From contig JBDREC010000089.1 of NCBI GenBank assembly GCA_043820105.1, positions 1 to 39,965 of the forward strand: 39,965 nucleotides of DNA, given 5' to 3'. The stretch comes from Pseudomonadota bacterium. GTDB taxonomy: Bacteria > Bdellovibrionota_F > JAHFAK01 > JBDREC01. The notes beneath the pieces are model-generated. The model saw nothing but the letters and a program-made list of their open reading frames with translations. It did no database searches and had not been told where the DNA came from. Made by a program: the position numbers and the translations under genes. Numbering within the stretch: position 1 is the stretch's first letter; the number at the start of each line of letters is the position of its first letter. Below are positions 6,416-39,695 of this stretch, piece by piece.

Positions 6416-7483
6416 ATGAGTAAAATCGCATTTAATATCATTTTAATATTATTTTTTATTACACCTGCCTTTGCATCTATTTCAAAATATGCAAAAGACA
6501 TGAAAAGTGGTGACCCAGATGTTAGACGAAAAGCACTTTATGAACTTGCCCAAATAAATACTAAAAAAGGAAATGATTATATAATAAAAGCTTTAGATGA
6601 TAAAAACGGGATGATACGAAGAAATGCAACCTTTATTTTGGGAACCTTAAAAGACAAAAGAGCAATTGCAAAACTTTCTCAAGTTGTTTTTTATGATGAA
6701 TCTCCTGAGGTTTCTTTATTTGCTGCTGAAGCTCTTTATAAACTTGGGATAAAGTCAGGCCTAAAGGTTTTGATTTCAAGCATTGAAAATAAAAATATAT
6801 CTATTGCCTTGCTGGCTATAGATAAACTAGAAGCAATGAAAGAGCAAGAAGCCCTTGTGACACTTGAAAAGAATTCAAAAACAAATGTAAGCGCTGAAGT
6901 CAAAAACAGAGCGGCAAAGGCAGTAAAAGTATTAAAAGGTGAAATTGATTATGATAAAGTTTTAAAGGCGAAAAACATTGTTGAAGATATTTATAGATCC
7001 TTTGATTCTTCACTTCCAGAGGAAATCGAAAAGAAAATTCAAAAAGCCATAAAGCTTGATCCTTTATTACCAGATATCTACATGATACTAGGAACTCTTC
7101 ATAACCAAAACAGCTCAAAGTGGAGTCAAGCTATAGAAGAATTTAAAAAAGCTCAAGATCTTGGCTATACTGACCGTGGTGAACTTTTCTTTTACATGGG
7201 CACTCTGTATTTAAACCTTGGAAAATTTCAGGATGCTATTAAAACTCTTACTAAAGCTGCTAAAGAAAAAAATGATGCTGATTCTTATTATCAACTTGGA
7301 ATTGTTTATTCTCGAATTAACCAAACTCAAAAGGCTATTGAGGTTACAGAAAAAGCAATAAAGATAGATCCAACTTATTCAATTGCCTATTATAATCTTT
7401 CCCAACTTTATAAAAGCATTGGAAACCCGTCAAAGTCTTCACAATATCTTGATCAATATAACTTAATGACTTCAAAAAAATAA
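6416..7483 (+). CDS. Exported HEAT-repeat plus TPR-repeat protein
   Basis: Signal peptide ending PAFA. HEAT motifs (DPDVRRKALYEL, IRRNATFILG). TPR motifs (SYYQLGIVY, AIKIDPTYSIAYYNL). Confidence 0.85.
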   Translation: MSKIAFNIILILFFITPAFASISKYAKDMKSGDPDVRRKALYELAQINTKKGNDYIIKALDDKNGMIRRNATFILGTLKDKRAIAKLSQVVFYDESPEVSLFAAEALYKLGIKSGLKVLISSIENKNISIALLAIDKLEAMKEQEALVTLEKNSKTNVSAEVKNRAAKAVKVLKGEIDYDKVLKAKNIVEDIYRSFDSSLPEEIEKKIQKAIKLDPLLPDIYMILGTLHNQNSSKWSQAIEEFKKAQDLGYTDRGELFFYMGTLYLNLGKFQDAIKTLTKAAKEKNDADSYYQLGIVYSRINQTQKAIEVTEKAIKIDPTYSIAYYNLSQLYKSIGNPSKSSQYLDQYNLMTSKK

Positions 7484-7497
7484 AAGTGGCTGTAATT

Positions 7498-8706
7498 TTA
7501 AGACAAAAAATTAGAAGCTGATACAATATAGCAATTATCTTTACCAGCTTTTATAACATCAGGGTCATGAATCAATTGAACCAGAGGTACATTTAGAATT
7601 TTAGAATGATCAATGTTATGAGATTCAAAGTTCTTAGAGCTCAATTTCGTTTCAATGAGCAAAAATGGTTTTTCGTCTCTTGTTATTATAAAATCAGTTT
7701 CTCGTTTATCTCTTAATCTTATAAAATTAAGATTAAAGGTGTATTTTGTAGCCATATTCCAAAGCTCTATTCTATTTTTTAGTTCACAGGCAACATAATT
7801 TTCAAATCTTGCCGCCTTATCCTTCACTTGTGTCCAATCATAAAAATAGACTTTTTTTTCTTTTTTTACAGCTCTTGAAATCTTTTCTGAATAAGGAGAA
7901 ATATTAAAAATTACATATGTTAGAATAAGAGAATTAACATAATTTTTAATAGCATTAAAACTAACATTTAAATCTTCTCTCAAAGAATTTAAAGACAAGG
8001 GTGAGCCTATCTTTGCAGGTAATAAATGCATTAGGGTAACAATATTCTCAAGCTCTTGAATCTTTGTGAGATCTCTTAGATCAGATCTAACAAGAGTATC
8101 AATGTAATTATTATGCCAATTAGAAGAAAAAACAGCATTCCCTTTAAGCAGTGGTTCTGGAAAGCCACCAAATTTTAATAATTGATCTAATTGTTTTTGA
8201 TTGCAATGGCTTTTAATATTTTCTTCAATATATTCTATAGCATTTCCAGTGGGAAGGACAAAGTTTGATTTCATCAATTCAAATAGCGATACAGGCAATA
8301 ATCGAAACAAGAAAAAACGCCCAGATAAGCTGTCTCCAGCTTTACGAAAAAGATCTAGTCTAGCTGAGCCTGTTACAATAAAATTATACTTTTGCTCAAA
8401 TGAATCAAATCCATCTTTTAAAATATCTTTCCATCTTGGATATTTGTGAATTTCATCAAAACAAATCCATTTTTTCCGACGTGTTTTTATTGTAATAGCA
8501 TCTGAGTGATAAAAATAAGGGTCATCAATGAATCGTCTCTTTATAGTCCTTAAGTCCCAGTTATAGTATAAATCTTCAAAACCGGTATCTTTTAAATATT
8601 TTTTAGCTAGAGTTGTCTTTCCAACTTGCCTTGGACCAGCAACAAACCTCATTTGACGGCCAAAGATTTTTGAAAAACATAGCTTTTCTAAATACCTTTC
8701 AATCAT
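7498..8706 (-). CDS. AAA+ ATPase, AAA_14/DUF4143 family
   Basis: Walker A GPRQVGKTT, Walker B FDEIHK, VTGSA, SLSGR, GGFPE, KVYFYD, FENYV, and a C-terminal ETDF..IETK nuclease-like motif. Confidence 0.92.
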   Translation of the reverse strand: MIERYLEKLCFSKIFGRQMRFVAGPRQVGKTTLAKKYLKDTGFEDLYYNWDLRTIKRRFIDDPYFYHSDAITIKTRRKKWICFDEIHKYPRWKDILKDGFDSFEQKYNFIVTGSARLDLFRKAGDSLSGRFFLFRLLPVSLFELMKSNFVLPTGNAIEYIEENIKSHCNQKQLDQLLKFGGFPEPLLKGNAVFSSNWHNNYIDTLVRSDLRDLTKIQELENIVTLMHLLPAKIGSPLSLNSLREDLNVSFNAIKNYVNSLILTYVIFNISPYSEKISRAVKKEKKVYFYDWTQVKDKAARFENYVACELKNRIELWNMATKYTFNLNFIRLRDKRETDFIITRDEKPFLLIETKLSSKNFESHNIDHSKILNVPLVQLIHDPDVIKAGKDNCYIVSASNFLS

Positions 8707-8710
8707 AACA

Positions 8711-8774
8711 ACATTTTTACCTATAATGGTAATTTTGTCAAGACATTTTTTACACCAATGTTAAATTTGTCAAT
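8711..8774 (-). promoter_or_regulatory. Tandem 32-bp direct repeat, each copy containing TTGACA; probable promoter/operator of the ATPase gene
   Basis: acatttttacctataatggtaattttgtcaag (8711-8742) and acattttttacaccaatgttaaatttgtcaat (8743-8774), ending 4 bp from the ATG; no Shine-Dalgarno visible. Confidence 0.55.
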
Positions 8775-8978
8775 ATCATGCTTTTAGAATGTTAATAGAA
8801 CTAAAAACATAGTTAAAACAACAAAATCGCCAAGACCATAACTTGAAAAACGAATAAAAAGAATCGAAAAGCCTCTCAAAATCGCTTAATTTTAATATTA
8901 ATAATAATTTGCAAAATCTAATTAAATTTCCTAATATGTTTTATAACTTATAATTATTGTTAGGGGAATACGTAACTT

Positions 8979-9614
8979 ATGCACACGCAAACCCTCAAAG
9001 AAGAAATTATAAATACTGTCATTCATGGTGTTGGTTTTTTGTTTGCTATGGCAGCTCTCATTTTAATGATAGTTTACGCTAGCCTTACAAAGGAACTAAT
9101 GCTCATTGCCAGTACAACTGTTTTTGGAATCAGCTTAGTATTTTTATATTATTCATCATCTCTTTATCACGCCTTTTCTTTAACAAACGCCAAATATGTT
9201 TTTCGTAAAATCGATCATTTTAATATTTACATTCTTATTGCAGGTACCTACACGCCGTTTGCACTGTCTGTTGTTGGTGGTGCCTGGGGCTGGACTCTTT
9301 TTGGAATAGAATGGGGGCTTGTTGTAGCTGGAATTGCATGGAAATCTTATTTTGGATATAGATATGATTTTTATGCAACAATGGGTTATGCTGTAATGGG
9401 ATGGATGATGATCATTGTTATAAAGCCACTTCTTGCAAATTTCAATTATTGGGGAATCTTTTGGCTATTCGGAGGAGGTGTTTTCTACACCCTCGGAATT
9501 CCATTTTTTTTATTAGATACCAAGCACAAATATTTTCATAATATCTGGCATGTATTTGTTTTAGCAGGCTCTGTATGTCATTTTTTATCAGTGTTTTTGT
9601 ATATAATTCCTTAA
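8979..9614 (+). CDS. Hemolysin III / PAQR family membrane protein
   Basis: EEIINTVIHG, SSLYHA, KIDHFNIYILIAGTYTP, GGVFYTLG, HNIWHVFVLAGSVCHF. Confidence 0.95.
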   Translation: MHTQTLKEEIINTVIHGVGFLFAMAALILMIVYASLTKELMLIASTTVFGISLVFLYYSSSLYHAFSLTNAKYVFRKIDHFNIYILIAGTYTPFALSVVGGAWGWTLFGIEWGLVVAGIAWKSYFGYRYDFYATMGYAVMGWMMIIVIKPLLANFNYWGIFWLFGGGVFYTLGIPFFLLDTKHKYFHNIWHVFVLAGSVCHFLSVFLYIIP

Positions 9615-9648
9615 TAAGAGAACAAGAGCGCAGGGGAACAAGGGAACA
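9611..9648 (+). repeat. 38-bp dispersed repeat, copy 1 (octamer-based, GAACAAGG-like)
   Basis: 35/38 identical to the reverse complement of 23668-23705. Confidence 0.85.
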
Positions 9649-9993
9649 TGGTGAATATTATTGCTACTTGCTGGCTGCTAGCTGCTGCTTGCTGTTGTAG
9701 ATTGAATTCATTCTTTTGATAAACTTCTTTAAAAGCATTTGCTCTTTTTCTTCTTGTTTCAACATCTAATACCTTATTAAATAGAAGCATAACAAGCGGA
9801 GAAATAAAGGCAGAAAGCGCTATGACTCTCCACATAAGTTCTGTGTTTCTTTCACCTTGCTCTGGACATAGTGTATAAAGTAAGATTCCTGTAGTTGGTC
9901 CCACAAGAAGCCTTCCAAAAAACATTGGTATAGTTGATAATGCCATATATGATACGAGTTGATTATCAGGAGCAACTGAAGCAGTATAATCCT
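9611..9993 (-). pseudogene. C-terminal fragment of an MFS transporter
   Basis: The frame extends upstream of the called Met as DYTASVAPDNQLVSYMALSTIPMFFGRLLVGPTTGILL, resembling the final two MFS helices. It is closed by a stop at about 10010 and the rest of the gene is absent. Confidence 0.55.
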
Positions 9994-10036
9994 GTTTTTT
10001 TAATTTTATTTAGGATCCAAGGTTAAAGCAAGCAAA

Positions 10037-10078
10037 ATAAAAAAAATCCCCGCCAGCTTAAGCCAGCGAGGATTTTTA
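10037..10078 (-). terminator. Intrinsic terminator of groES-groEL
   Basis: Minus-strand hairpin AATCCTCGCTGGC-TTAA-GCTGGCGGGGATT (with G-U pairs) followed by a U-tract. Confidence 0.85.
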
Positions 10079-23667: not shown

Positions 23668-23705
23668 TGTTCCCTTGTTCCCTTGCGCTTTTGTTCTCTT
23701 CTTAA
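23668..23705 (-). repeat. 38-bp dispersed repeat, copy 2
   Basis: Reverse complement is 35/38 identical to 9611-9648; it follows the epimerase stop codon. Confidence 0.85.
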
Positions 23706-24736
23706 TGCAACAACTCAACAGGCAAAACACCAAGTCCGGTACTCTTTGGAATTATCAACAGATTATTATTAAAATAAGCTCCTTTGAAAGGATCTTCTTC
23801 AATTAAAATTATACTATCAAGATCAACAAAATCAGCAAGAGGCATTATATGGGCAGCTGCTGTTATTCCAAGTGAGCTTTCAATCCTACAACCTAGAAGT
23901 ATCTTTAGGCTGTGCTTTCTGGCTTCTGTGATCATTTCAATTGCTTTGTAAATTCCACCAACTTTTTGGATTTTAATATTAACACCATCAGCAAGCTCTG
24001 CGTATCTAATAATATCATTTAAACACGTGATATCTTCATCAAGTATTATTGGCATTTTACAGTGTTTTTTTATTTCTTTAATGCCTTCTTTTGAACCTGC
24101 TTTTATTGGTTGTTCAATAAATTCAACAAAATCATATTTTTCCAGAGCCTGTATTTTTTTTATGGCCTCATCAACTTCCCAATCTTCATTTACGTCAATC
24201 CAAATTTTTGCTCTTGTTTTTTGGTGAACATGTTGAGCTATATCTAAATCTGTATCTTTGTTATATTTAATTTTTATAATTGGACTATGCTTATATTCTT
24301 CACACATAATATTTAACCGATCAAGCTTGAGCTGATCAATACTAATAGTTTTAGCAGATGGTCTTATGGCTTCTCTATCTAAACCCAATAACTCATATAC
24401 AGGTTTATTCATAAGTTTGCCATTGATATCGTAAAGAGCCATATCAATGGCTGCTTTTGCGGCACGCTGATTTGGGTCAACTTCATCAAGCCTATCCAGT
24501 ATCCCCTTAATATCAAGCGGATCATTTCCAAGTTTGTCTGAAACATTAAATAAAAAATTAACAACAGATTCTATACTTTCACCGAATCTGGCAGATGGAA
24601 CAGCCTCACCCAAACCAAAAAGCCTGCCATATATTACTTCAACAAGCACAATATCCTTTTCTTTTATTGCTTCAGACCTAGAGATCCTCCAGCTTCTTTT
24701 TAATTTTATTTTTGCTTTAGAAACTTTAAGTTGCAT
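23702..24736 (-). CDS. Enolase-superfamily dipeptide epimerase / N-acyl amino acid racemase (L-Ala-D/L-Glu epimerase or DgcA-like)
   Basis: GLGEA, AIDMALYD, KIK, DVNE, EQP, ILDE, GVNIK, GCRIES, DLD. Confidence 0.88.
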   Translation of the reverse strand: MQLKVSKAKIKLKRSWRISRSEAIKEKDIVLVEVIYGRLFGLGEAVPSARFGESIESVVNFLFNVSDKLGNDPLDIKGILDRLDEVDPNQRAAKAAIDMALYDINGKLMNKPVYELLGLDREAIRPSAKTISIDQLKLDRLNIMCEEYKHSPIIKIKYNKDTDLDIAQHVHQKTRAKIWIDVNEDWEVDEAIKKIQALEKYDFVEFIEQPIKAGSKEGIKEIKKHCKMPIILDEDITCLNDIIRYAELADGVNIKIQKVGGIYKAIEMITEARKHSLKILLGCRIESSLGITAAAHIMPLADFVDLDSIILIEEDPFKGAYFNNNLLIIPKSTGLGVLPVELLH

Positions 24737-25778
24737 TTTTTCCTCTTTTATTTATTTGTTTAATAAATGAATCCACAATATTTCCCATTCCAAATTTAAC
24801 CGGGTCATTAGTGGGAAGCCCCGTATATTCTTCTGTTTCCTTAATTACTAATCTCGCTTCATCAATTGAAAGATCTCTACAATTCAAAGCAATTCCTATC
24901 ACTTTTGCTTTCCGATAATATGGAGTAATATCTTCATAGACCCTTATTGCTTCTTTTAAATCAGGTATTTCAAACTTAGATTCTTTAATATATTTTCTTG
25001 AAGGCTCATGGCATAGAATCATATATTGCGGTAAAGCTCCATGAATAAGACCCATTGTCACACCAGAATATCCAATATGAAATAATGAACCTTGACCTTC
25101 AACTGAAATAACATCAGCATCTTTTCCATACTTCATAATTAGTTCTTCTGTTGTCCCAGACATAAAGTCACCAATAACACGATCTATGGCCAGACCATAA
25201 CCTTCTATTAAAATACCAATTTGCCCAGTGGGAATAAAAACTGAATTTATCTTTCTTTTCTTTAATGCTCTGTCAAAGATTATAGAAGCTGTCATTTTTC
25301 CAATCTTACAATCAGTGCCAACTGTAAGGACAATATTGGAATTTAGGTTCATAACCTTTCCGGTTCCAACTGGCCCGTTTTTAGGAACATCCCTAACATC
25401 CCATAGCTTAACCCCACAGCGCTTTGCCTCTTTGCTTAAAAGCTCATCAGAATTTAACATGAAGTGCAGTCCAGAATATATTGATAAACCATATCTAATT
25501 GCAAATAAAAGATCTGATTTCCATTCTTCTGGAAGCATACCACCTTTTGGAGCAATTCCAATTATCATTGCTTCAGGTTTAAATTCAAGCGTGTCTTCAA
25601 TGCTTGCATATATCATTACATCACTGGGCAAGTCAGGAAAATATTTTTTAACTGAATTTCCTCTTATACTAGAATCAACAACTCCTACAATATCATAAGT
25701 AGAAAATCTTAAAACCCCGAGGGCAAGTTTTGAGTACTCGCCAGCGAACTGTCCTTGTGCATAAATGATTACTCTCAA
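24726..25778 (-). CDS. DUF1611 family protein (DgcN-like N-acetyltransferase)
   Basis: GIAPKGG, SGLH, VGTDCKIGKM, TGQIGI, DFMSG, VEGQGSLFH, LIHG, LCH, GLPTNDPV. Confidence 0.9.
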   Translation of the reverse strand: MRVIIYAQGQFAGEYSKLALGVLRFSTYDIVGVVDSSIRGNSVKKYFPDLPSDVMIYASIEDTLEFKPEAMIIGIAPKGGMLPEEWKSDLLFAIRYGLSIYSGLHFMLNSDELLSKEAKRCGVKLWDVRDVPKNGPVGTGKVMNLNSNIVLTVGTDCKIGKMTASIIFDRALKKRKINSVFIPTGQIGILIEGYGLAIDRVIGDFMSGTTEELIMKYGKDADVISVEGQGSLFHIGYSGVTMGLIHGALPQYMILCHEPSRKYIKESKFEIPDLKEAIRVYEDITPYYRKAKVIGIALNCRDLSIDEARLVIKETEEYTGLPTNDPVKFGMGNIVDSFIKQINKRGKNAT

Positions 25779-25782
25779 TTTT

Positions 25783-26655
25783 TTAGTCTCCTGTTAAAAG
25801 CGCTTTTTCTAAATTACCTGCACATGATTTTAATTTTTCAAAGGCCTTTTGTACAGAAATATTTTGCTTTTGAGATAAAATTGATACCTTAAGGTCATCT
25901 TTTGCACTTTTCAAAATAGTATGAGCTTCTTTTTCTGATATATTTAGCTCTTTTGATAAAATATTAAGTTGCCTTTTTCTTAATTTTTCGTTTGTACAGG
26001 CAACGTTGGTCATTAGATTTCCATAGGTTTTGCCTAGTTTTATCATTGAAAGAGTAGAAATCATATTAAGAATTATTTTTTGGCTTGTTCCTGCTTTTAG
26101 CCTGGAAGAACCAAGAATGATTTCTTCGCCCAAGGAGGGGCTAATTACAATGTCATATTTATAAATAAGGTTTTGCTTGTTTTGCCCGGTTGTAACTAAA
26201 ATGGTAAAAGCCTTTTTTCTTTTAGCATAATTCAAGGCTGAAAGGGTAAAGGGTGTTGTTCCACTGGCACTAATGCCAATGCAAATATCGTTTTTATTTA
26301 GCTTTCTTTTTTTAAGTTCTTCAACTGAAGCCTTCTTATCATCTTCAGCGCCTTCCACTGCCTTATAAATCGCCTTTTTACCTCCAGCCATGATTGGAAT
26401 AACCTGATCATCAAACACTGAAAACGTTGGAGCAAGCTCAGCTGCATCTAAATATCCCAATCTTCCTGAAGTCCCAGCACCTATATAAAAAAGCCTGCCA
26501 GCTGTTGATAAAGCATTAACAACTTCTCTTATAGCTTTATTAATTCGGGGAAGTTCTTTTTTAATGGATGAAATGACCTTGATATCATCTTCATTCATTT
26601 TTTTAGATATTTGAGCTATGCTTAAGCTCCTTAGATTCTTTTTACTTTGCTGCAC
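25783..26655 (-). CDS. murQ: N-acetylmuramic acid 6-phosphate etherase
   Basis: GRLFYIGAGTSGRLGYLDAAE..PTF, AVEGAED, GISASGTTP, GSSRLKAGTSQKIILNMIST, GNLM. Confidence 0.95.
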   Translation of the reverse strand: MQQSKKNLRSLSIAQISKKMNEDDIKVISSIKKELPRINKAIREVVNALSTAGRLFYIGAGTSGRLGYLDAAELAPTFSVFDDQVIPIMAGGKKAIYKAVEGAEDDKKASVEELKKRKLNKNDICIGISASGTTPFTLSALNYAKRKKAFTILVTTGQNKQNLIYKYDIVISPSLGEEIILGSSRLKAGTSQKIILNMISTLSMIKLGKTYGNLMTNVACTNEKLRKRQLNILSKELNISEKEAHTILKSAKDDLKVSILSQKQNISVQKAFEKLKSCAGNLEKALLTGD

Positions 26656-27265
26656 TTTTTCTTTTCCTTTTCATGCTAATAAGACCTGATTTAATTAAAT
26701 CATCACTATATTTATAAAAAAGAGTTTCTTCATTTTCAACCATTTTGCTTGTAATGTAAGCTATTTCTGAAAACCTTAATCTGTTTTGCTTGGTTGAAAA
26801 ATCCAATCCATACTGCTCACAATGAGCAGCAATTAGAATTCCTTTTTTAGAGTAATCAAAAACATATGGCCAGGCAAAACACAAAAGAGGTTTAATGCCC
26901 TGAATAGAACATCGATATTTCTCTTTATCCAGCAAATTACAGTGCCCTCTTTTGGGAAGCTTAAGCATACAAACTCCCTGAGAATAATAATTATGATATT
27001 CATCATACAATTGAAAATGTTTTAACAAAGAATTATCAAGAAAGTGAGCAACGTCTACAAGATACAAAGGAATATAAGCCACATTTTTATGCATGCAACA
27101 GCGTGCCTTACATTTAAAGCAGGGATTTTCTTTAAGGACTTTCTTTGGAAGATTGGATTCTTTTTTTAGTATTTTTAAATAGCTTTTATGGTATTTGTCA
27201 TCTGTTTCTTTTTTGTCTTTTAGAATTTTAAGTAGCTTTTCAAAATATGTTGATTCACCTTTCAT
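26642..27265 (-). CDS. YkgJ / CxxCxxCC family cysteine-cluster (Zn/Fe-binding) protein
   Basis: CFKCKARCC, HCNLLD, CSIQGIKPLLCFAWP. Confidence 0.85.
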   Translation of the reverse strand: MKGESTYFEKLLKILKDKKETDDKYHKSYLKILKKESNLPKKVLKENPCFKCKARCCMHKNVAYIPLYLVDVAHFLDNSLLKHFQLYDEYHNYYSQGVCMLKLPKRGHCNLLDKEKYRCSIQGIKPLLCFAWPYVFDYSKKGILIAAHCEQYGLDFSTKQNRLRFSEIAYITSKMVENEETLFYKYSDDLIKSGLISMKRKRKSAAK

Positions 27266-28058
27266 TAATAGCCGCCTCTAAAGTTTTAATAATTTTTTTA
27301 AAATCATCACATCGAAACTTATAAAAATCAATTGATTCCATAAGGCTTACTTTACAATAAGGAAGCATTGAATTCTTTCGTATTAGCCTATTACCTGCTT
27401 CGTGTGATATTTTAGCGAATTCACATGCTTTAACTCTTGCTCTTTTAAAAAAAACAACTTTTTTCAAATAGGTTTTTTCTTTCTGATTTCTCTGGCTTAA
27501 TTTGAATATATAGGGAGCAACTTCTAGTTTTTTATAATTTTTAATGTTTTTTTTAATAACCTCATAGCCTTTATAAGAGCTCACAACCAGGCGAGGCAAA
27601 GGTAAAACTTCATTTGTTTTTACATTTATCAAGGCTATTTCATCTGATAAATACTTATAACCAAGCTCAGCCATTTTAATTGATATTAAAGACTTGCCTG
27701 AGAATTTATTAGCAGAAATCACAATTGCTTTTTCGCCCTTTGCAAATACAGCTGCATGAATTTTTGCATAAGCAGACTCCAGGTGCACAATGTCTTTAAT
27801 TAAATACCATTCAAAATTCGCAAGCAAATCCCAATAATCATTGGCTACATAATCTAGATTTTGATTTTCATAAATTTCATATTCATTATTTTTATTATAA
27901 ATAAGAGTATATATTTTGGATATTTTGCTTGTTTGCTTACTGTTTATAAAGGAAAAAAAATAAGGGCTCAGATCTTTTACAAGATTTTCAAAAAGATCCT
28001 GACTATTTGATTTCACAGAAATTAATTTATTATTTAAGTCAATAATCTTGGAAAACAC
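27255..28058 (-). CDS. HPr-kinase-related P-loop protein
   Basis: IHAAVF..AIVISANKFSGKS..GYKYLSDEIALI..PLPR; GTG start directly after the PqqD stop. Confidence 0.75.
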   Translation of the reverse strand: MFSKIIDLNNKLISVKSNSQDLFENLVKDLSPYFFSFINSKQTSKISKIYTLIYNKNNEYEIYENQNLDYVANDYWDLLANFEWYLIKDIVHLESAYAKIHAAVFAKGEKAIVISANKFSGKSLISIKMAELGYKYLSDEIALINVKTNEVLPLPRLVVSSYKGYEVIKKNIKNYKKLEVAPYIFKLSQRNQKEKTYLKKVVFFKRARVKACEFAKISHEAGNRLIRKNSMLPYCKVSLMESIDFYKFRCDDFKKIIKTLEAAINER

Positions 28059-28331
28059 TTATGCCTTTCTAACAAGATCTTGATTTTCAAGTTCACTTAC
28101 TATTTTTTTAATATCAATTAAAGCTTGTTTCTTATTCACTTCATATCTAGTCTTAAGCTCTTCAGCTATTTCATCCAGGGTATTATTACCAGTGCATGCC
28201 TTCCATATCAAAGTACTTGTTGCATTCAAGGTTAAAACCTTTGAACCATCTTGATTAAACAAAAGAATTTCATCACCAACTGGTCTTTGAATAATTCCCC
28301 TGGATTTTTTAAATTTATCATTATTTTTCAT
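28059..28331 (-). CDS. PqqD-family RiPP recognition element
   Basis: VGDEILLF..LTLNATSTLIWKACTG..TLDEIAEELKTRYEV..ALIDI..L...DLV. Confidence 0.92.
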   Translation of the reverse strand: MKNNDKFKKSRGIIQRPVGDEILLFNQDGSKVLTLNATSTLIWKACTGNNTLDEIAEELKTRYEVNKKQALIDIKKIVSELENQDLVRKA

Positions 28332-29422
28332 TAATTATATTTCTCATAATAAATTAAACTTAGCTTTTTTATCTCATCATACATTTCTTTGCAACCATTA
28401 AAACCAAATGTCTTTGGATAACCATGGTATAAAGGAGCTTGTCTGCACATACCACAAACAGGCTTATATTCGCATTTTAAGCATTCTGAATTTGGGACAT
28501 TAATTTTTAGGATATCTTTTACCTTTTTAATGATATCATCATCTGAACACTCTTCACTTATTATTGAAACAGGCTCATCAAGTTCACATCTTCTCAAATT
28601 TCCATAACAATCAATTTCAAGTAAAGTGCCACCAAAGCACCCATAAAATGCAGACTCAAAACTTAGCATCTTCCTTTGAAAATCCCCTGGAGAGAAGCCT
28701 AAAAACCATATTGGTTCAACATGTGTATACTTTTTCATTATTAGAGAATGGTATTTTGCAGATGCCTCCATATATTCTTCTAAGGTTAAGACCATTTTCA
28801 TAACAGCTGCTTTTGTTGAGTGCCTATGTCCTTTGGGAAAATGTAGGATTGGGTGAACAAAGTGAGATATTTTGCAGCTATTTCTTTGTCCTAGATTATT
28901 TAAATAAATTAAAAGAGGCTCAAGTTCTTTAAAGTTATTCTTTGTTAAGGTTGTTTTAATTGAAGTGCTAATATTGGCGTTAAAATATTTTTCAAAATTA
29001 CCAATTACACTTTTATAGGATTTTCTGGTAAATTCATGAACTTTATCAATACCATCAACACTGACACTTACAGAAAATAAGTTATTATCAACTTTTAGTT
29101 TTTTGTTTGTTAAAATCTTGTCCGGAATATTAAAACCATTTGTAACATATGTAAGGCAAACACCATTATTAACAAGATAATCAATAAAGCTGTAAACAGC
29201 CTTTGAAGTCAATATTTCTCCGCCTGATAGCTGAAGGCGAAGTTGGGCATTTCCTAAGTGCTTTAGCAAGGCATCTATTATTTTTTTTCTGAAACTATAA
29301 GTGATGTATTTTTTCTTGTTTTTTTTTTCGATATAACAATAAGGACATGAAAAATTACAATTCTTGGTAATTTCCATAACAATATTACAAAATTGAAGTT
29401 GCTTTGGTAAGATCTTGGTCAT
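28331..29422 (-). CDS. Radical SAM/SPASM-domain peptide maturase
   Basis: CNFSCPYC (CxxxCxxC), SGGE, VTNG, VSVDG. SPASM cysteines: CFGG..IDCYGNLRRC..CLKCEYKPVCGMC..GC. Confidence 0.92.
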   Translation of the reverse strand: MTKILPKQLQFCNIVMEITKNCNFSCPYCYIEKKNKKKYITYSFRKKIIDALLKHLGNAQLRLQLSGGEILTSKAVYSFIDYLVNNGVCLTYVTNGFNIPDKILTNKKLKVDNNLFSVSVSVDGIDKVHEFTRKSYKSVIGNFEKYFNANISTSIKTTLTKNNFKELEPLLIYLNNLGQRNSCKISHFVHPILHFPKGHRHSTKAAVMKMVLTLEEYMEASAKYHSLIMKKYTHVEPIWFLGFSPGDFQRKMLSFESAFYGCFGGTLLEIDCYGNLRRCELDEPVSIISEECSDDDIIKKVKDILKINVPNSECLKCEYKPVCGMCRQAPLYHGYPKTFGFNGCKEMYDEIKKLSLIYYEKYN

Positions 29423-29445
29423 TTATTTTATAAATTTCTAATAAG

Positions 29446-29952
29446 CTAATTTTTCTTCTTATCATAATCGAAAAGAGAATCTTTTTTGCCTTTATCATCA
29501 TATGGCTGGCCATAGCTTTGATTATAAGTTCCTTCTTGCCCAGGCATTCCACCTCCAGGAGCAGGAACTATAACAGGAGCTGGCTGACCCCATTGTGTTT
29601 TTTGATCTTCGGTTTCTCCTGGCATGCCACCCTTGCCTGATCCACCACCACCTTTAACCTTCTCACAATAAGATCCATTCCAAACATAATTAGCAGGACA
29701 TTTTAGAGTAGTACAAACCCCTTTTCCTGGGTCCCATTTTAAGGCTGGTGGGCAAACACAGCTTTTAACTTTAGTATTAAAAACCTTATTTTTGGGACAA
29801 GAAATACCTTTAATCCATACGGGCTTTGGTGGAGCAAAGGCTTTTTCTATCATCATAGTCTCAATTGTTGGAACAAGATAGGGAAGAAGTAGGGCAGACT
29901 TTGCTGACTTTTTTAAAAAATCTCTTCTTTTATTATCTGTTTTATGTGCCAT
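29446..29952 (-). CDS. Putative precursor/substrate protein: twin-arginine plus YxxP leader, three Cys-pair repeats, Gly/Pro-rich tail
   Basis: RRDFLKK, PYLVPTI, AFA; CPKNKVFNTKVKSC, CPPALKWDPGKGVC, CPANYVWNGSYC; two GGMPG...[WY]GQP repeats. Confidence 0.7.
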   Translation of the reverse strand: MAHKTDNKRRDFLKKSAKSALLLPYLVPTIETMMIEKAFAPPKPVWIKGISCPKNKVFNTKVKSCVCPPALKWDPGKGVCTTLKCPANYVWNGSYCEKVKGGGGSGKGGMPGETEDQKTQWGQPAPVIVPAPGGGMPGQEGTYNQSYGQPYDDKGKKDSLFDYDKKKN

Positions 29953-29997
29953 AAAATTAATTTTCCGAATAAGTTTAAATAGTTACATGAAGCAGTT

Positions 29998-30026
29998 ATT
30001 ATACCATTATATTAATAAAAAAGCAA
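29998..30026 (-). promoter_or_regulatory. Sigma70 promoter with extended -10 for the RiPP-like cassette
   Basis: Minus strand TTGCTT-N17-TATAAT with TG immediately upstream of the -10 box (TGGTATAAT). Confidence 0.7.
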
Positions 30027-36825: not shown

Positions 36826-37299
36826 ATGCATGATGATATGAAAATTTTATTTATTTGTACTGCTAATATGTGCAGATCTCCTTTTGCTGAAAATTTGGCC
36901 CGTAAAATTTTTACCCAGTACAATTTGAATGATTTTAGCTTTGATTCTGCTGGAACTGCTGCTGAAAACAACTGTAAAGCTGTCAAGGATGCTGTCTTGT
37001 GGGGATGCAAATTTGACCTTGATTTTAAAGAACATCGCTCAAAACAAGTAAGTAAAGAACTTCTTGATGAGGCTGAAATCGTTTGTGCAATGGAAAAACA
37101 CCATTACGAATATTTAAATGCCTATTTCCCTGAATATAAAAATAAAATAAAACTTCTTTCTGAATATGTAATTGGCGGGGAGCGTGGCTTTGATATTCTT
37201 GATCCTGTGGGAAAAAAATCAGCTTATTATGAAAAATCTTTTACTGATATTGACAGGTGCATAAGAGGTTTAGCAGAATTTTGCTCTGAAGAATACTAA
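36826..37299 (+). CDS. Low-molecular-weight protein tyrosine/arginine phosphatase
   Basis: ILFICTANMCRSPFAE, DSAGT, HRSKQ, AME, DILDP. Confidence 0.92.
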   Translation: MHDDMKILFICTANMCRSPFAENLARKIFTQYNLNDFSFDSAGTAAENNCKAVKDAVLWGCKFDLDFKEHRSKQVSKELLDEAEIVCAMEKHHYEYLNAYFPEYKNKIKLLSEYVIGGERGFDILDPVGKKSAYYEKSFTDIDRCIRGLAEFCSEEY

Positions 37300-39695
37300 T
37301 CTTTTTGAATCACCTTGCCTGTTGCCATATCCCCAATAAGCTTAATTGTTTTGTCTTTTTTAACTTCAATACTTGTTCTAATTGTTGGATAATTTGGGTT
37401 TTGAAGTTCTATTTCATATTTTCCTGTTTTCATTTTAAGCTCAGAATAGGTTGTTTCATTGGTAAAGGTGCCATTAACATATATATAAGCCCAGGGGGTT
37501 GCTTGAAAAGAAATTATTCCATAAGTAGGTGGTTTTACTTTTAGTTTTGCATAAACGGTTTTTGGGAAAATGGTACTAGATATTGATTCAGATGAAGAAA
37601 ATTGATGGTATTCTTTATTATTATTTAAACTAATTTTTATATTATATTTTTGATTAAGCTTGATTCCTGGAACCTCTAAGGGAGTTTTTCCAAAATGTTT
37701 GCCATCAATATAAATATCAGCTCCAACTGGGTCAGATTTAATATTAAATTTACCATACATTTTATCCAAAAGCACCATTAGCCTCTCACCGGCATCTTCT
37801 TGAATCATTACATCTTTTGAATAGTCTTTATAATCTTCCTTAGTAAGCTTAATCTTATATGTTTCTCCAAGAGTCATTTTATTAATTGTTGTAGGAGTAT
37901 TAAGCCCAGTATTCTGATTATTGAGATAAATTCTTGCCCCAGGAGGAGATGATGATATATATAAGGTTGTTTCATTGATTATTTTTTCCAAATTAAATTC
38001 AAGAACCTGAATTTCTTCTTCGATATTTCTTCCTCTTTTAACATCTATTTCCTTTTCAATGGTAGTAAATCCTTCTTTTTGGGCGATAATTTTATAGTGC
38101 CCAATTTTCATAGCATCTGCCTTGATTCCTCCTGAAATACTTTTAACCCTTGTGCCGCTAACATTAAGAATATCAATGCTTGCGTCGGCTGGATTAACAT
38201 TGATTGTAACATATCCCTCATTCATAGGAATCGGTTTAACATCAGGGTTATCTTGTACCTTTTGAGAAATATTCCTGTTTTTTTTATATCTATCTTTGAG
38301 CCTTTCATCTTTTCCGCCATCTTTATAATAGACAGTATATGCACCAAAACCAAAAACTAATAGCCCTATCAAAAGAAGTAATTTTTTAGATTTTAAAATA
38401 AACATTAAAGGTGAAAATAAAAGCTTAAAAATTTTGCCAAGACCTGATTTTGACTTCTTTTCATCCTCTGGAATATCTGAGATATAACTTATTGTTTGAT
38501 AAAAAGTATCATCGCCTCTTGGAATTGAGGGTGGCGGAACATCAGCCTTTGATACACTGTAATTTGATTGGCTAAGAGAATTTTCGTCATAAGTAAAAAA
38601 GGATTCATCAACATTGGAGTTTGAATCCTGGCTTCTTGCCCTTGAAATTTCAGAGTTTTCCTGAGCTGATCTGCTATTCTCGGCTAGCTGCTCATTAATA
38701 AGATCATCTATACGTCTTTGGTTTACAATAGTAGATAATTTTTTTCTATCGTCCCTAATTTCGTCTGCAAATAAGGTTTTCATAAATGAAGTAAGCTTTG
38801 TTGCTGCAAAATCAAGAGATGTTGAATATAAAAACTTGGTTAAATCTAGTTGAAACTCACCAGCTGTTTGATATCTTTTTTGTTGATCTCTTTCTAATAC
38901 TCGCAAGGAAATTCGATCAAGGCTCTCCGGAATCTTATTGTTAAAAGTTGACGGTGGATCAATGTGAATCTCTTTCACTTTCTCAAGTGTATCAAAATCA
39001 GTTTCTCCCAAAAACAGGCGTTTCCCAGCAAGCAATTCCCACATCATAATTCCAACTGAGAAAATATCTGACCTGGAATCAATTTCCTCGCCTCTAGCTT
39101 GCTCAGGAGACATGTAACCAAACTTACCCTTAAGTACCCCTGCTTGTGTTTGGGTAATCTTATTGGCAGCCTTTGCTATTCCAAAATCAACAACCTTAAC
39201 TTCACCTTCATACGAAATCATCACATTTTGAGGACTTATATCCCGATGAATAATATGTAAGCTTTCATTTGTGTCATCTCGTTTTTTTCTGTGAGCATAG
39301 TCAAGTCCCTTACAAACCTCTGAAACAATATAAACAACTTGTTCAATTGAAAGTTTAATTCCCTTTGAAATACACTTCTTTGTAATTTCCCTTAAATTTT
39401 TGCCCTCAATAAATTCCATAGCAATGAAATATGTATTGTCGATCTGCCCCAATTCATAAACTTGAGCGAGATTTGAATGTGACAAAGAAACTGATATCTT
39501 TGCCTCATCAATGAACATATTTACAAACTCTTTATCTTCTGAAAGGTGGGGTAAGATCTTCTTAATAACAAGCATTTTTTCAAAGCCGCCAATTCCATAT
39601 TGCTTGGCCTTATATATTTCAGCCATTCCACCAATGGCAATTCTATCTATTAAAAGGTATTTTCCGAAGGGTTTTGGTTTAAAAGATTCACTCAT
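37296..39695 (-). CDS. Hanks-type Ser/Thr protein kinase with TM helix and PEGA domains
   Basis: FGKYLLIDRIAIGGMAEIY, HRDISPQN, DFGIAKA, GKFGYMSPEQ, SDIFS; TM helix; SSPPGARIYLN and SDPVGADIYIDG..GKTP PEGA motifs. Confidence 0.96.
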   Translation of the reverse strand: MSESFKPKPFGKYLLIDRIAIGGMAEIYKAKQYGIGGFEKMLVIKKILPHLSEDKEFVNMFIDEAKISVSLSHSNLAQVYELGQIDNTYFIAMEFIEGKNLREITKKCISKGIKLSIEQVVYIVSEVCKGLDYAHRKKRDDTNESLHIIHRDISPQNVMISYEGEVKVVDFGIAKAANKITQTQAGVLKGKFGYMSPEQARGEEIDSRSDIFSVGIMMWELLAGKRLFLGETDFDTLEKVKEIHIDPPSTFNNKIPESLDRISLRVLERDQQKRYQTAGEFQLDLTKFLYSTSLDFAATKLTSFMKTLFADEIRDDRKKLSTIVNQRRIDDLINEQLAENSRSAQENSEISRARSQDSNSNVDESFFTYDENSLSQSNYSVSKADVPPPSIPRGDDTFYQTISYISDIPEDEKKSKSGLGKIFKLLFSPLMFILKSKKLLLLIGLLVFGFGAYTVYYKDGGKDERLKDRYKKNRNISQKVQDNPDVKPIPMNEGYVTINVNPADASIDILNVSGTRVKSISGGIKADAMKIGHYKIIAQKEGFTTIEKEIDVKRGRNIEEEIQVLEFNLEKIINETTLYISSSPPGARIYLNNQNTGLNTPTTINKMTLGETYKIKLTKEDYKDYSKDVMIQEDAGERLMVLLDKMYGKFNIKSDPVGADIYIDGKHFGKTPLEVPGIKLNQKYNIKISLNNNKEYHQFSSSESISSTIFPKTVYAKLKVKPPTYGIISFQATPWAYIYVNGTFTNETTYSELKMKTGKYEIELQNPNYPTIRTSIEVKKDKTIKLIGDMATGKVIQKD

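Follow-up and report, generated by a model that had tools for sequence, protein, structure and literature searches.

A 39,965-nucleotide (nt) stretch of DNA from a Pseudomonadota bacterium (NCBI GenBank assembly GCA_043820105.1, contig JBDREC010000089.1; the whole stretch is here called the window) carries five minus-strand genes that probably form a maturation cassette for a product of the RiPP type (peptides made on the ribosome and modified after translation). The cassette would belong to the lasso peptide/LPP lineage (for LPP, see Popov et al., Nat Commun 2026, PMC13381572, used here throughout as the accessible part of that article), and its substrate would be the product of its own first gene. 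The five genes, and the parts of the first gene product on which the argument turns, are as follows (aa, amino acids; ORF, open reading frame; RRE, RiPP recognition element).

29446-29952, minus strand: likely precursor (substrate) gene, 168 aa (ORF); leader, residues 1-40; core, residues 41-168.
28331-29422, minus strand: radical S-adenosylmethionine (SAM)/SPASM enzyme gene, 363 aa (ORF, Pfam, NCBIfam, cysteine pattern, profile alignment, and tree).
28059-28331, minus strand: discrete PqqD-type RRE gene, 90 aa (PF05402 at 2.1e-15).
27255-28058, minus strand: HprK/PEPCK-fold P-loop protein gene, 267 aa, putative peptide Ser/Thr kinase (TIGR04352, fold match).
26642-27265, minus strand: CxxCxxCC (PF03692) Cys-cluster protein gene, 207 aa (PF03692 at 1.6e-5).
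29908-29928, minus strand: twin-arginine motif R-R-D-F-L-K-K, residues 9-15 of the precursor (K-R-R-D-F-L-K-K spans residues 8-15).
29863-29880, minus strand: Y-L-V-P-T-I, residues 25-30, lasso-type [Y/W]xxPx[LVIFA] RRE recognition motif (alignments; motif as defined in the accessible part of PMC13381572).
29833-29841, minus strand: A-F-A, residues 38-40, putative signal-peptidase-I-type site, with Pro next (ORF translation).
29665-29799, minus strand: Cys-rich part of the core, with Cys 52, 65, 67, 80, 85, and 96 and three CP-x(9-12)-C units (ORF translation).

An earlier note, made from the window's sequence alone, had described five co-oriented, abutting or overlapping genes, and all five ORFs lie at these coordinates. 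In order, they are separated by a 23-nt gap, a 1-nt overlap (the radical SAM stop and the PqqD start share 1 nt), a direct abutment, and an 11-nt overlap; with no intergenic gap above 23 nt, the cassette has no space for a further ORF.

The first gene product is likely the substrate, and the sequence evidence for this lies in its N terminus. The N-terminal 40 residues are the only part of the 168-aa protein that is conserved with precursors of other lineages (genomes G009, G249, G057, and others), and the cores cannot be aligned. Conservation of the leader but not of the core typifies RiPP precursors and supports the assignment. The earlier note had named this gene as the substrate, which is well supported by the sharing of the leader with precursors that stand beside homologous radical SAM, PqqD, and HprK-like genes in other lineages. 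The leader consists of K/S-R-R-x-F-L/I-K-K, about 15 moderately hydrophobic residues that hold [Y/F/I]xxPx[ILVM], and then a small-x-small site. R10, K15, L22, L23, P24, Y25, and P28 are invariant in a five-sequence precursor alignment. Across eight cassette precursors, P28 is invariant, the first position of its motif is Y, F, or I, and RRxFLKK is retained throughout (as RR or KR); the small-x-small site follows at the same place in most relatives, by a permissive pattern. A leader profile run over the window's own genome matched the 168-aa protein at 8.2e-21 and, apart from a second precursor on contig C4, no other ORF genome-wide.

The window core (128 residues) is Cys-rich, Gly/Pro/Gln-rich, and Lys-only (19 Lys, 0 Arg, 6 Cys). 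The G249 cores are Arg-Gly repeats and the G009 core is an Arg-rich, probably helical segment; neither type contains Cys. The window core gave a weak, sub-threshold match to CBM_14 (0.002; 18.6 bits versus a cut-off of 22.1) and no usable structural look-alike in the protein atlas (predicted local distance difference test [pLDDT], 0.53; template-modeling [TM] score, ≤0.37).

Of 401 sampled genomes, 7 have this leader next to PqqD and HprK-like genes, and additional metagenome loci show the same arrangement. Out of eight cassettes in total, all have the leader, the PqqD gene, and the HprK-like gene, seven have an NTP_transf_5 gene, four a gene for a methyltransferase like protein arginine methyltransferases (PRMT-like), three the rare radical SAM gene, and one, that of the window, the CxxCxxCC gene. 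The context of the radical SAM gene is readable in three lineages, namely, the window, G009 (locus L013, a metagenome-assembled genome contig labeled uncultured Nitrospinota), and the G249 lineage (represented by G249 and three metagenome contigs; L034-36, L093, and L095). In all three lineages, the neighbors of the radical SAM gene include PqqD and HprK-like genes as well as a precursor gene, or two, bearing this leader, so that the conserved neighborhood for which the earlier note had proposed looking among radical SAM homologs was found wherever context could be read.

The same leader also stands beside PqqD, HprK-like, and NTP_transf_5 genes, without this radical SAM, on contig C4 of the window's genome and in G057, G169, G321, and G005. 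An HprK-like profile matched 38 of the 401 genomes; 30 HprK-like loci were taken with flanks of about 1.5 kb, the leader profile matched in 6 of the 30, and five loci were then widened. Four of the widened loci (G057, G169, G321, and G005) hold a precursor together with PqqD, HprK-like, and NTP_transf_5 genes, joined in G005 by a PRMT-like gene. Among 339 candidates from a large protein collection, the leader profile matched 43 small proteins without names at E ≤ 10. By a permissive pattern (RR-x-hydrophobic-hydrophobic-K, aromatic-xxP, small-x-small), 37 of the 45 identifiers examined fit and 8 did not; these proteins have highly varied cores that are short, basic or rich in Gly/Pro.

The cassette RREs most closely resemble the B1 proteins of lasso and LPP systems. 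The best NCBIfam match of the 90-aa protein was the lasso PqqD chaperone (4.1e-9, below cut-off). A profile of the eight cassette RREs, run against the PDB, retrieved TbiB1 (9.5e-13), TfuB1 (6.2e-10), LppB (9x8z; 4.9e-9), and PbaB1 (9x90; 2.8e-7), which are the four solved RREs crystallized with [Y/W]xxP leaders, and PqqD proper only after these four, at 3.5e-5. The 267-aa protein had no Pfam match and matched HprK_rel_A/TIGR04352 at 2.3e-15 (56.5 bits versus a cut-off of 200). Its predicted model (pLDDT, 78.4; predicted TM score, 0.74) resembled PEPCK (2.9e-5) and HprK/P (1kkl; 8.1e-5; TM score on target, 0.54) in Foldseek, and H101, A102, G121, K122, G133, and D139 are invariant in nine HprK-like homologues, G121-K122 marking the P-loop. 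The CxxCxxCC protein passed the PF03692 cut-off (1.6e-5; 25.9 bits versus 23), and its first motif reads C-x2-C-x3-C-C. For this protein, NCBIfam gave no match at E ≤ 10, the PDB gave no meaningful relative, and the literature gave no informative paper. Its gene is tied to the cassette by adjacency alone, and no counterpart was identified among the genes annotated in the seven sister cassettes; the window gene occupies the slot after the HprK-like gene, where the other radical-SAM-linked cassettes have the PRMT-like methyltransferase. FliB, which we take to be a PF03692 member, would suggest a lysine methylase acting on the Lys-only core, an idea on which we do not rely.

The 363-aa enzyme matched Radical_SAM in Pfam (4.6e-13). 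The enzyme, whose CX3CX2C sits at residues 22-29, therefore lacks an N-terminal RRE domain, in keeping with a need for the separate PqqD protein. C26, C29, C262, G274, C279, C314, C317, C323, C326, and C344 are shared without exception by 12 family members, and the window and G009 enzymes, aligned as a pair, also have C22 in common. Set against the canonical seven-Cys SPASM pattern, the enzyme reads C262-x11-G274-x4-C279 ... C314-x2-C317-x5-C323-x2-C326 ... C344, a SPASM-type arrangement; the Pfam SPASM model itself did not match at E ≤ 0.01. The family profile aligned full length to CteB, SuiB, and anSME, and its nearest solved enzymes were the sactisynthases SkfB (5e-25) and CteB (5.2e-19), followed by SuiB (7.4e-10) and PqqE (7.9e-10); CteB, SuiB, and SkfB align only from residue 98-135 onward, whereas the window enzyme begins at its CX3CX2C motif. 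No NCBIfam equivalog cut-off was reached.

A profile search of 1,835,955,588 representatives delimited a subfamily of 13 proteins at E ≤ 1e-30, with a score drop after them (144 to 105 bits). A quick tree covering 46 sequences (14 of the first 60 matches were left out for length) places these 13 on one side of a branch with a support of 85 (SH-aLRT, an approximate likelihood ratio test). A word-indexed homology search returned the query alone at E ≤ 1e-20. The subfamily occurs in 3 of the 401 sampled genomes, the window's own included, and within each of its three small phyla it is confined to the carrier (1 of 4, 1 of 2, and 1 of 3 genomes). It is thus both rare and distinct, and its context predicts an enzyme of the peptide-maturase type. 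The earlier note had held that clustering with non-peptide enzymes would speak against its reading; the nearest solved enzymes are peptide maturases. One weak radical SAM match, L014, was rejected as a member of the same system, being surrounded by ketosynthase and acyl carrier protein genes; the other loci with weak matches, covered by a leader-motif scan only, yielded no leader.

We propose that the discrete PqqD-type RRE docks on the leader at its YxxP stretch, which is likely given its resemblance to lasso B1 proteins, and would present the core to the enzymes. The HprK-like P-loop protein would phosphorylate Ser/Thr residues of the core, a plausible activity by analogy with the paeninodin and LPP pathways. 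The radical SAM/SPASM enzyme, lacking an RRE of its own, would rely on PqqD and carry out a radical modification of the core. For the Cys-rich core of the window, a first guess would be a thioether or other intramolecular cross-link, which would suit the three CP-x(9-12)-C units; epimerization is an alternative that would be compatible as well with the sister cassettes' Cys-free cores. The leader might then act as a Tat (twin-arginine translocation) signal, after which housekeeping signal peptidase I might cut behind A-F-A.

Several observations weigh against this reading of the cassette. The best NCBIfam match of the radical SAM enzyme is a non-peptide enzyme, AhbD (1.2e-16; 61 bits versus a cut-off of 500), with matches to the RiPP maturase models about as weak (TIGR04463, 1.4e-14; ScmF, 9.6e-13). 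Readable context covers 3 lineages among 13 radical SAM clusters, and an LLPY-type leader occurs in G057 without this enzyme. No motif common to the three radical-SAM-linked cores was found. A thioether as the shared radical SAM chemistry had to be rejected because two of the three core types lack Cys, so the chemistry differs between members or is independent of the residue, as in epimerization. Methylation of Arg-Gly cores by the PRMT-like enzymes, also considered, fits G249 and G009 but fails for contig C4 of the window's genome and for G005, whose cores lack Arg. Finally, of the eight cassettes, that of the window alone lacks NTP_transf_5, which is present elsewhere in the window's genome.

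In agreement with the earlier note, Pfam and NCBIfam show no protease, cyclase, or exporter in the window cassette; the seven sister cassettes, with flanks only partly annotated, yielded none either. Export by Tat followed by cleavage by signal peptidase I would explain why peptidase and exporter are missing from all of the cassettes. On sequence features, we hold it possible, at somewhat less than an even chance, that the leader is a Tat signal exported and removed in this way. Only 8 of the 9,411 ORFs (≥50 aa) of the window's genome have the pattern RR.[FL][LIV]K within their N-terminal 70 aa; 2 of these are RiPP-like precursors, 4 look like ordinary Tat signals, and 2 look spurious. One of the four Tat-like ORFs resembles, by a motif that we take to be diagnostic, a hydrogenase small subunit. 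TatC was found in the window's genome (1.3e-71) and in all seven carrier genomes, and the window's genome also encodes signal peptidase I (Peptidase_S26 at 2.6e-50). Against Tat export, TatC is common anyway (11 of 14 control genomes), the Tat-signal hidden Markov models TIGR01409 and PF10518 missed the window protein (Pfam; NCBIfam at E ≤ 10), and relatives scored below cut-off (12.3-15.5 bits versus 16.7). The hydrophobic stretch of the leader is short and contains two prolines, with Glu coming next. Pro also directly follows A-F-A, at the +1 position, and Pro at +1 blocks signal peptidase I.

Those weaknesses of the leader as a signal are what favors the first rival, in which the cassette is the same RiPP-like cassette and the leader is only Tat-like: a cytoplasmic recognition sequence whose product stays in the cell or leaves by means of a transporter and protease whose genes lie elsewhere. 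A role limited to recognition, as in this rival, is the normal one for RiPP leaders. Yet RRxFLKK persists in every one of the eight cassettes and matches the Tat-looking signals of the window's own genome, most relatives have a small-x-small site after the leader, and neither peptidase nor exporter appeared in the eight cassettes over the stretches examined. In LPP systems, moreover, cleavage of the leader is the work of a signal-peptidase-I-type enzyme (PMC13381572, accessible part). We consider a leader that is only Tat-like rather unlikely. The fuller form of the Tat reading, which we offer tentatively, is a working Tat signal that carries a lasso-type RRE docking motif in its hydrophobic region. 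PqqD would act like a Tat proofreading chaperone that holds the signal until tailoring is done, and Tat export and the housekeeping signal peptidase would follow.

A second rival sets the first gene apart from the others: the 168-aa protein would be an ordinary Tat-exported, disulfide-rich envelope protein, and the radical SAM, PqqD, and HprK-like proteins would act on another, unseen peptide. The 128-residue core is far longer than those of relatives, its six regularly spaced Cys residues could simply form disulfides, it bears a weak likeness to CBM_14/EGF-like modules, and the flanking BamA, TamB, and MurQ genes are envelope genes. This rival nonetheless fares poorly, and we judge it very improbable. 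The YxxP leader recurs beside PqqD and HprK-like genes across the genomes and metagenome loci given above, with differing cores; the gaps within the cassette could not accommodate another ORF; and the leader-profile scan of the genome returned only this ORF and the C4 precursor. That the radical SAM protein is a cofactor-type SPASM enzyme (AhbD/NirJ-like) whose place in the cassette is incidental can be all but dismissed: AhbD, NirJ2, and NirJ1 are its best NCBIfam matches, all far below cut-offs, but the RiPP maturase models score nearly the same, SkfB and CteB are its nearest solved relatives, its PqqD/HprK-like/precursor context is kept in each readable lineage, and its stop overlaps the PqqD start.

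Among described systems, the closest is LPP of Bacillota, which combines an RRE, HprK, and a YxxP leader with a variable precursor of 35-200 aa (PMC13381572, accessible part, as for the other LPP statements here). Both systems have a discrete lasso-type RRE with an HprK-like kinase, and both have precursors with a conserved YxxPx[hydrophobic] N terminus and a highly variable C terminus. The discrete lasso RREs recognize a [Y/W]xxPx[LVIFA] leader motif. An NTP transferase is shared with LPP by the sister cassettes and not by the window cassette. LPP clusters often lie in capsule loci, and envelope or polysaccharide genes lie nearby in both systems; the Poly_export and Wzz-kinase genes of G249 echo the capsule association. 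Unlike LPP, the window cassette and its neighbors on both sides have no SpI-like peptidase and no MsbA-like exporter. The window leader has a twin-arginine n-region, a radical SAM/SPASM enzyme and a CxxCxxCC protein are added, and NTP_transf_5 is absent. Radical SAM is not mentioned in the accessible part of PMC13381572, which calls LPP restricted to Bacillota, whereas the carriers here are diderm candidate phyla. The earlier note had not recognized the combination as a characterized RiPP class. One part of that claim gives way, the module of HprK, RRE, and YxxP leader being already described; the other part stands, as no published description of the full gene combination was found in the searched literature, where papers on HprK and RiPPs were represented mostly by titles and the openings of abstracts. 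Nor is a folded-protein-sized substrate unprecedented, as the earlier note had implied, because LPP precursors already span 35-200 aa. We therefore place the system within the world of RRE-dependent lasso/LPP peptides and radical SAM RiPPs, not as a categorically new kind.

Other known systems share parts of the cassette. Paeninodin-type lasso clusters have a B1-type RRE, the [Y/W]xxP motif, an HprK-like kinase, and an NTP transferase as a tailoring enzyme (PMC13381572, accessible part). By Pfam and NCBIfam, however, the cassette encodes neither the macrolactam synthetase (C) nor the B2 cysteine protease of lasso clusters and therefore cannot make a lasso. The window radical SAM enzyme shares CX3CX2C and the seven-Cys SPASM pattern with SkfB, CteB, SuiB, and PqqE, and a separate PqqD protein would be used as by PqqE/PqqD in PQQ (pyrroloquinoline quinone) synthesis. 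In contrast to SkfB, CteB, and SuiB, it lacks a fused N-terminal RRE and forms a distinct 13-cluster subfamily. The CXXX-repeat system (TIGR04117/TIGR04114 with TIGR04115) likewise has a target with an RREFLKK-type N terminus and a Cys-rich core, but the window enzyme scored 46.9 bits against the TIGR04115 cut-off of 350, and the window precursor did not match TIGR04117. SynChlorMet and HPr-rel-A systems share the co-occurrence of PqqD-like and HprK-like proteins, SynChlorMet also having radical SAM/SPASM enzymes; scores fell below cut-off for ScmF (48.2 versus 400), ScmE (41 versus 400), ScmD (34.4 versus 100), HprK_rel_A (56.5 versus 200), and PqqD_rel_X (22.4 versus 35).

Among the proteins from the leader search, P0183, a small, Cys-rich protein, matched TIGR04117 at 1.9e-12 over residues 2-90, including RREFLKK, just under cut-off; it has no aromatic-xxP motif. 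It is a catalogued precedent, so that Tat-like N termini on radical SAM targets are not entirely new. The most unusual feature of the cassette is the Tat-signal-like leader with a built-in RRE motif, recurring in several poorly known phyla; no description of such a leader was found in the searched literature.

The earlier note had also placed the five genes behind their own extended -10 promoter. The site in question is as follows.

29998-30026, minus strand: promoter-like site, TTGCTT 30026-30021, 17-nt spacer, TGn 30006-30004, TATAAT 30003-29998 (read by eye; consensus match only).

The extended -10 element, TGgTATAAT at 30006-29998, is visible by eye with TTGCTT 17 nt upstream. A promoter scan did not include it in its list and returned 21 promoter-like sites, compared with 20.9 ± 4.0 in shuffles. 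Downstream of the cassette (23702-26655, minus strand) lie genes for MurQ (the MurNAc [N-acetylmuramic acid]-6-P etherase), a DUF1611/DgcN-like protein, and a DgcA-like racemase/epimerase. The MurQ gene overlaps the CxxCxxCC gene by 14 nt, and the other two genes follow close behind; the scan found no terminator-like site between the CxxCxxCC gene and MurQ. Because promoter-like sites are no commoner than in shuffles, the tight packing runs on into MurQ, and no terminator-like site precedes MurQ, neither an own promoter nor a five-gene transcription unit is established. A search of sequencing runs gave no RNA run for the sequence and three DNA runs with small word shares (0.07-0.13). The three downstream genes are themselves joined by overlaps or 4-nt gaps with no terminator-like site between them, so the cassette may be cotranscribed with these peptidoglycan-recycling genes; an operon running on into MurQ would count against a unit of five genes.

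Upstream of the cassette lie BamA and TamB genes, which overlap each other. The GC content of the cassette (0.29-0.34, compared with 0.28-0.39 across the window) gives no sign of recent transfer. Elsewhere in the window (36826-39695), a low-molecular-weight phosphotyrosine phosphatase gene adjoins that of a eukaryotic-type Ser/Thr kinase (799 aa) that has PEGA domains.

The second cassette of the window's genome (L096, contig C4, 38000-56000) spans 6518-10057 of that locus and comprises NTP_transf_5, PqqD, HprK-like, and PRMT-like genes but no radical SAM gene; its precursor, of 63 aa, carries an RREFLKK leader. It is flanked by a 1,508-aa ORF before it and by 620- and 730-aa ORFs after it on the other strand, all without a Pfam match. 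The two HprK-like paralogues of this genome are 26% identical. Three further loci of the genome pair radical SAM, PqqD, and/or HprK-like ORFs in a hidden Markov model scan (C102, 8418-10813; C10, 152422-153874; C76, 84177-86232), none with a leader-profile match; TatC lies on C102 about 4 kb from the pairing locus.

In the G249 lineage, genes for a Poly_export/SLBB protein with FG-GAP repeats and a Wzz/GNVR tyrosine-kinase-type protein lie downstream of the radical SAM gene (L093/L034). The PRMT-like gene is a single 378-aa ORF in L034 and L035 (L035, 2784-3920) and is split into 314- and 65-aa ORFs in L036 (4894-5956), either by a frameshift or as a true difference; its C-terminal extension has no Pfam match. 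The fifth widened locus (L131, G104 contig C4, 6796-9647) is of a different type, with a 469-aa radical SAM-SPASM-PqqD fusion, an HprK-like gene, and a second PqqD-domain ORF, and had no leader-profile match in the stretch examined.

The HprK/RRE module of LPP is extended by these cassettes from Bacillota to diderm candidate phyla, and the rare radical SAM/SPASM subfamily comes with a natural set of differing cores (Cys-rich and Lys-only, Arg-Gly repeats, and helical and Arg-rich). The leader motif (RRxFLKK, YxxPx[ILV], small-x-small) is a simple handle for mining unannotated small ORFs. If the reading holds, the cassette would join RiPP leader recognition by RREs with Tat signal-peptide quality control, fields that have been treated apart, and a RiPP pathway without its own protease and exporter would be shown to be possible. 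The general secretion machinery would then replace the dedicated protease and ATP-binding cassette exporter of other RiPP classes, and a family of Tat-routed modified peptides or proteins would extend across several little-known diderm phyla.

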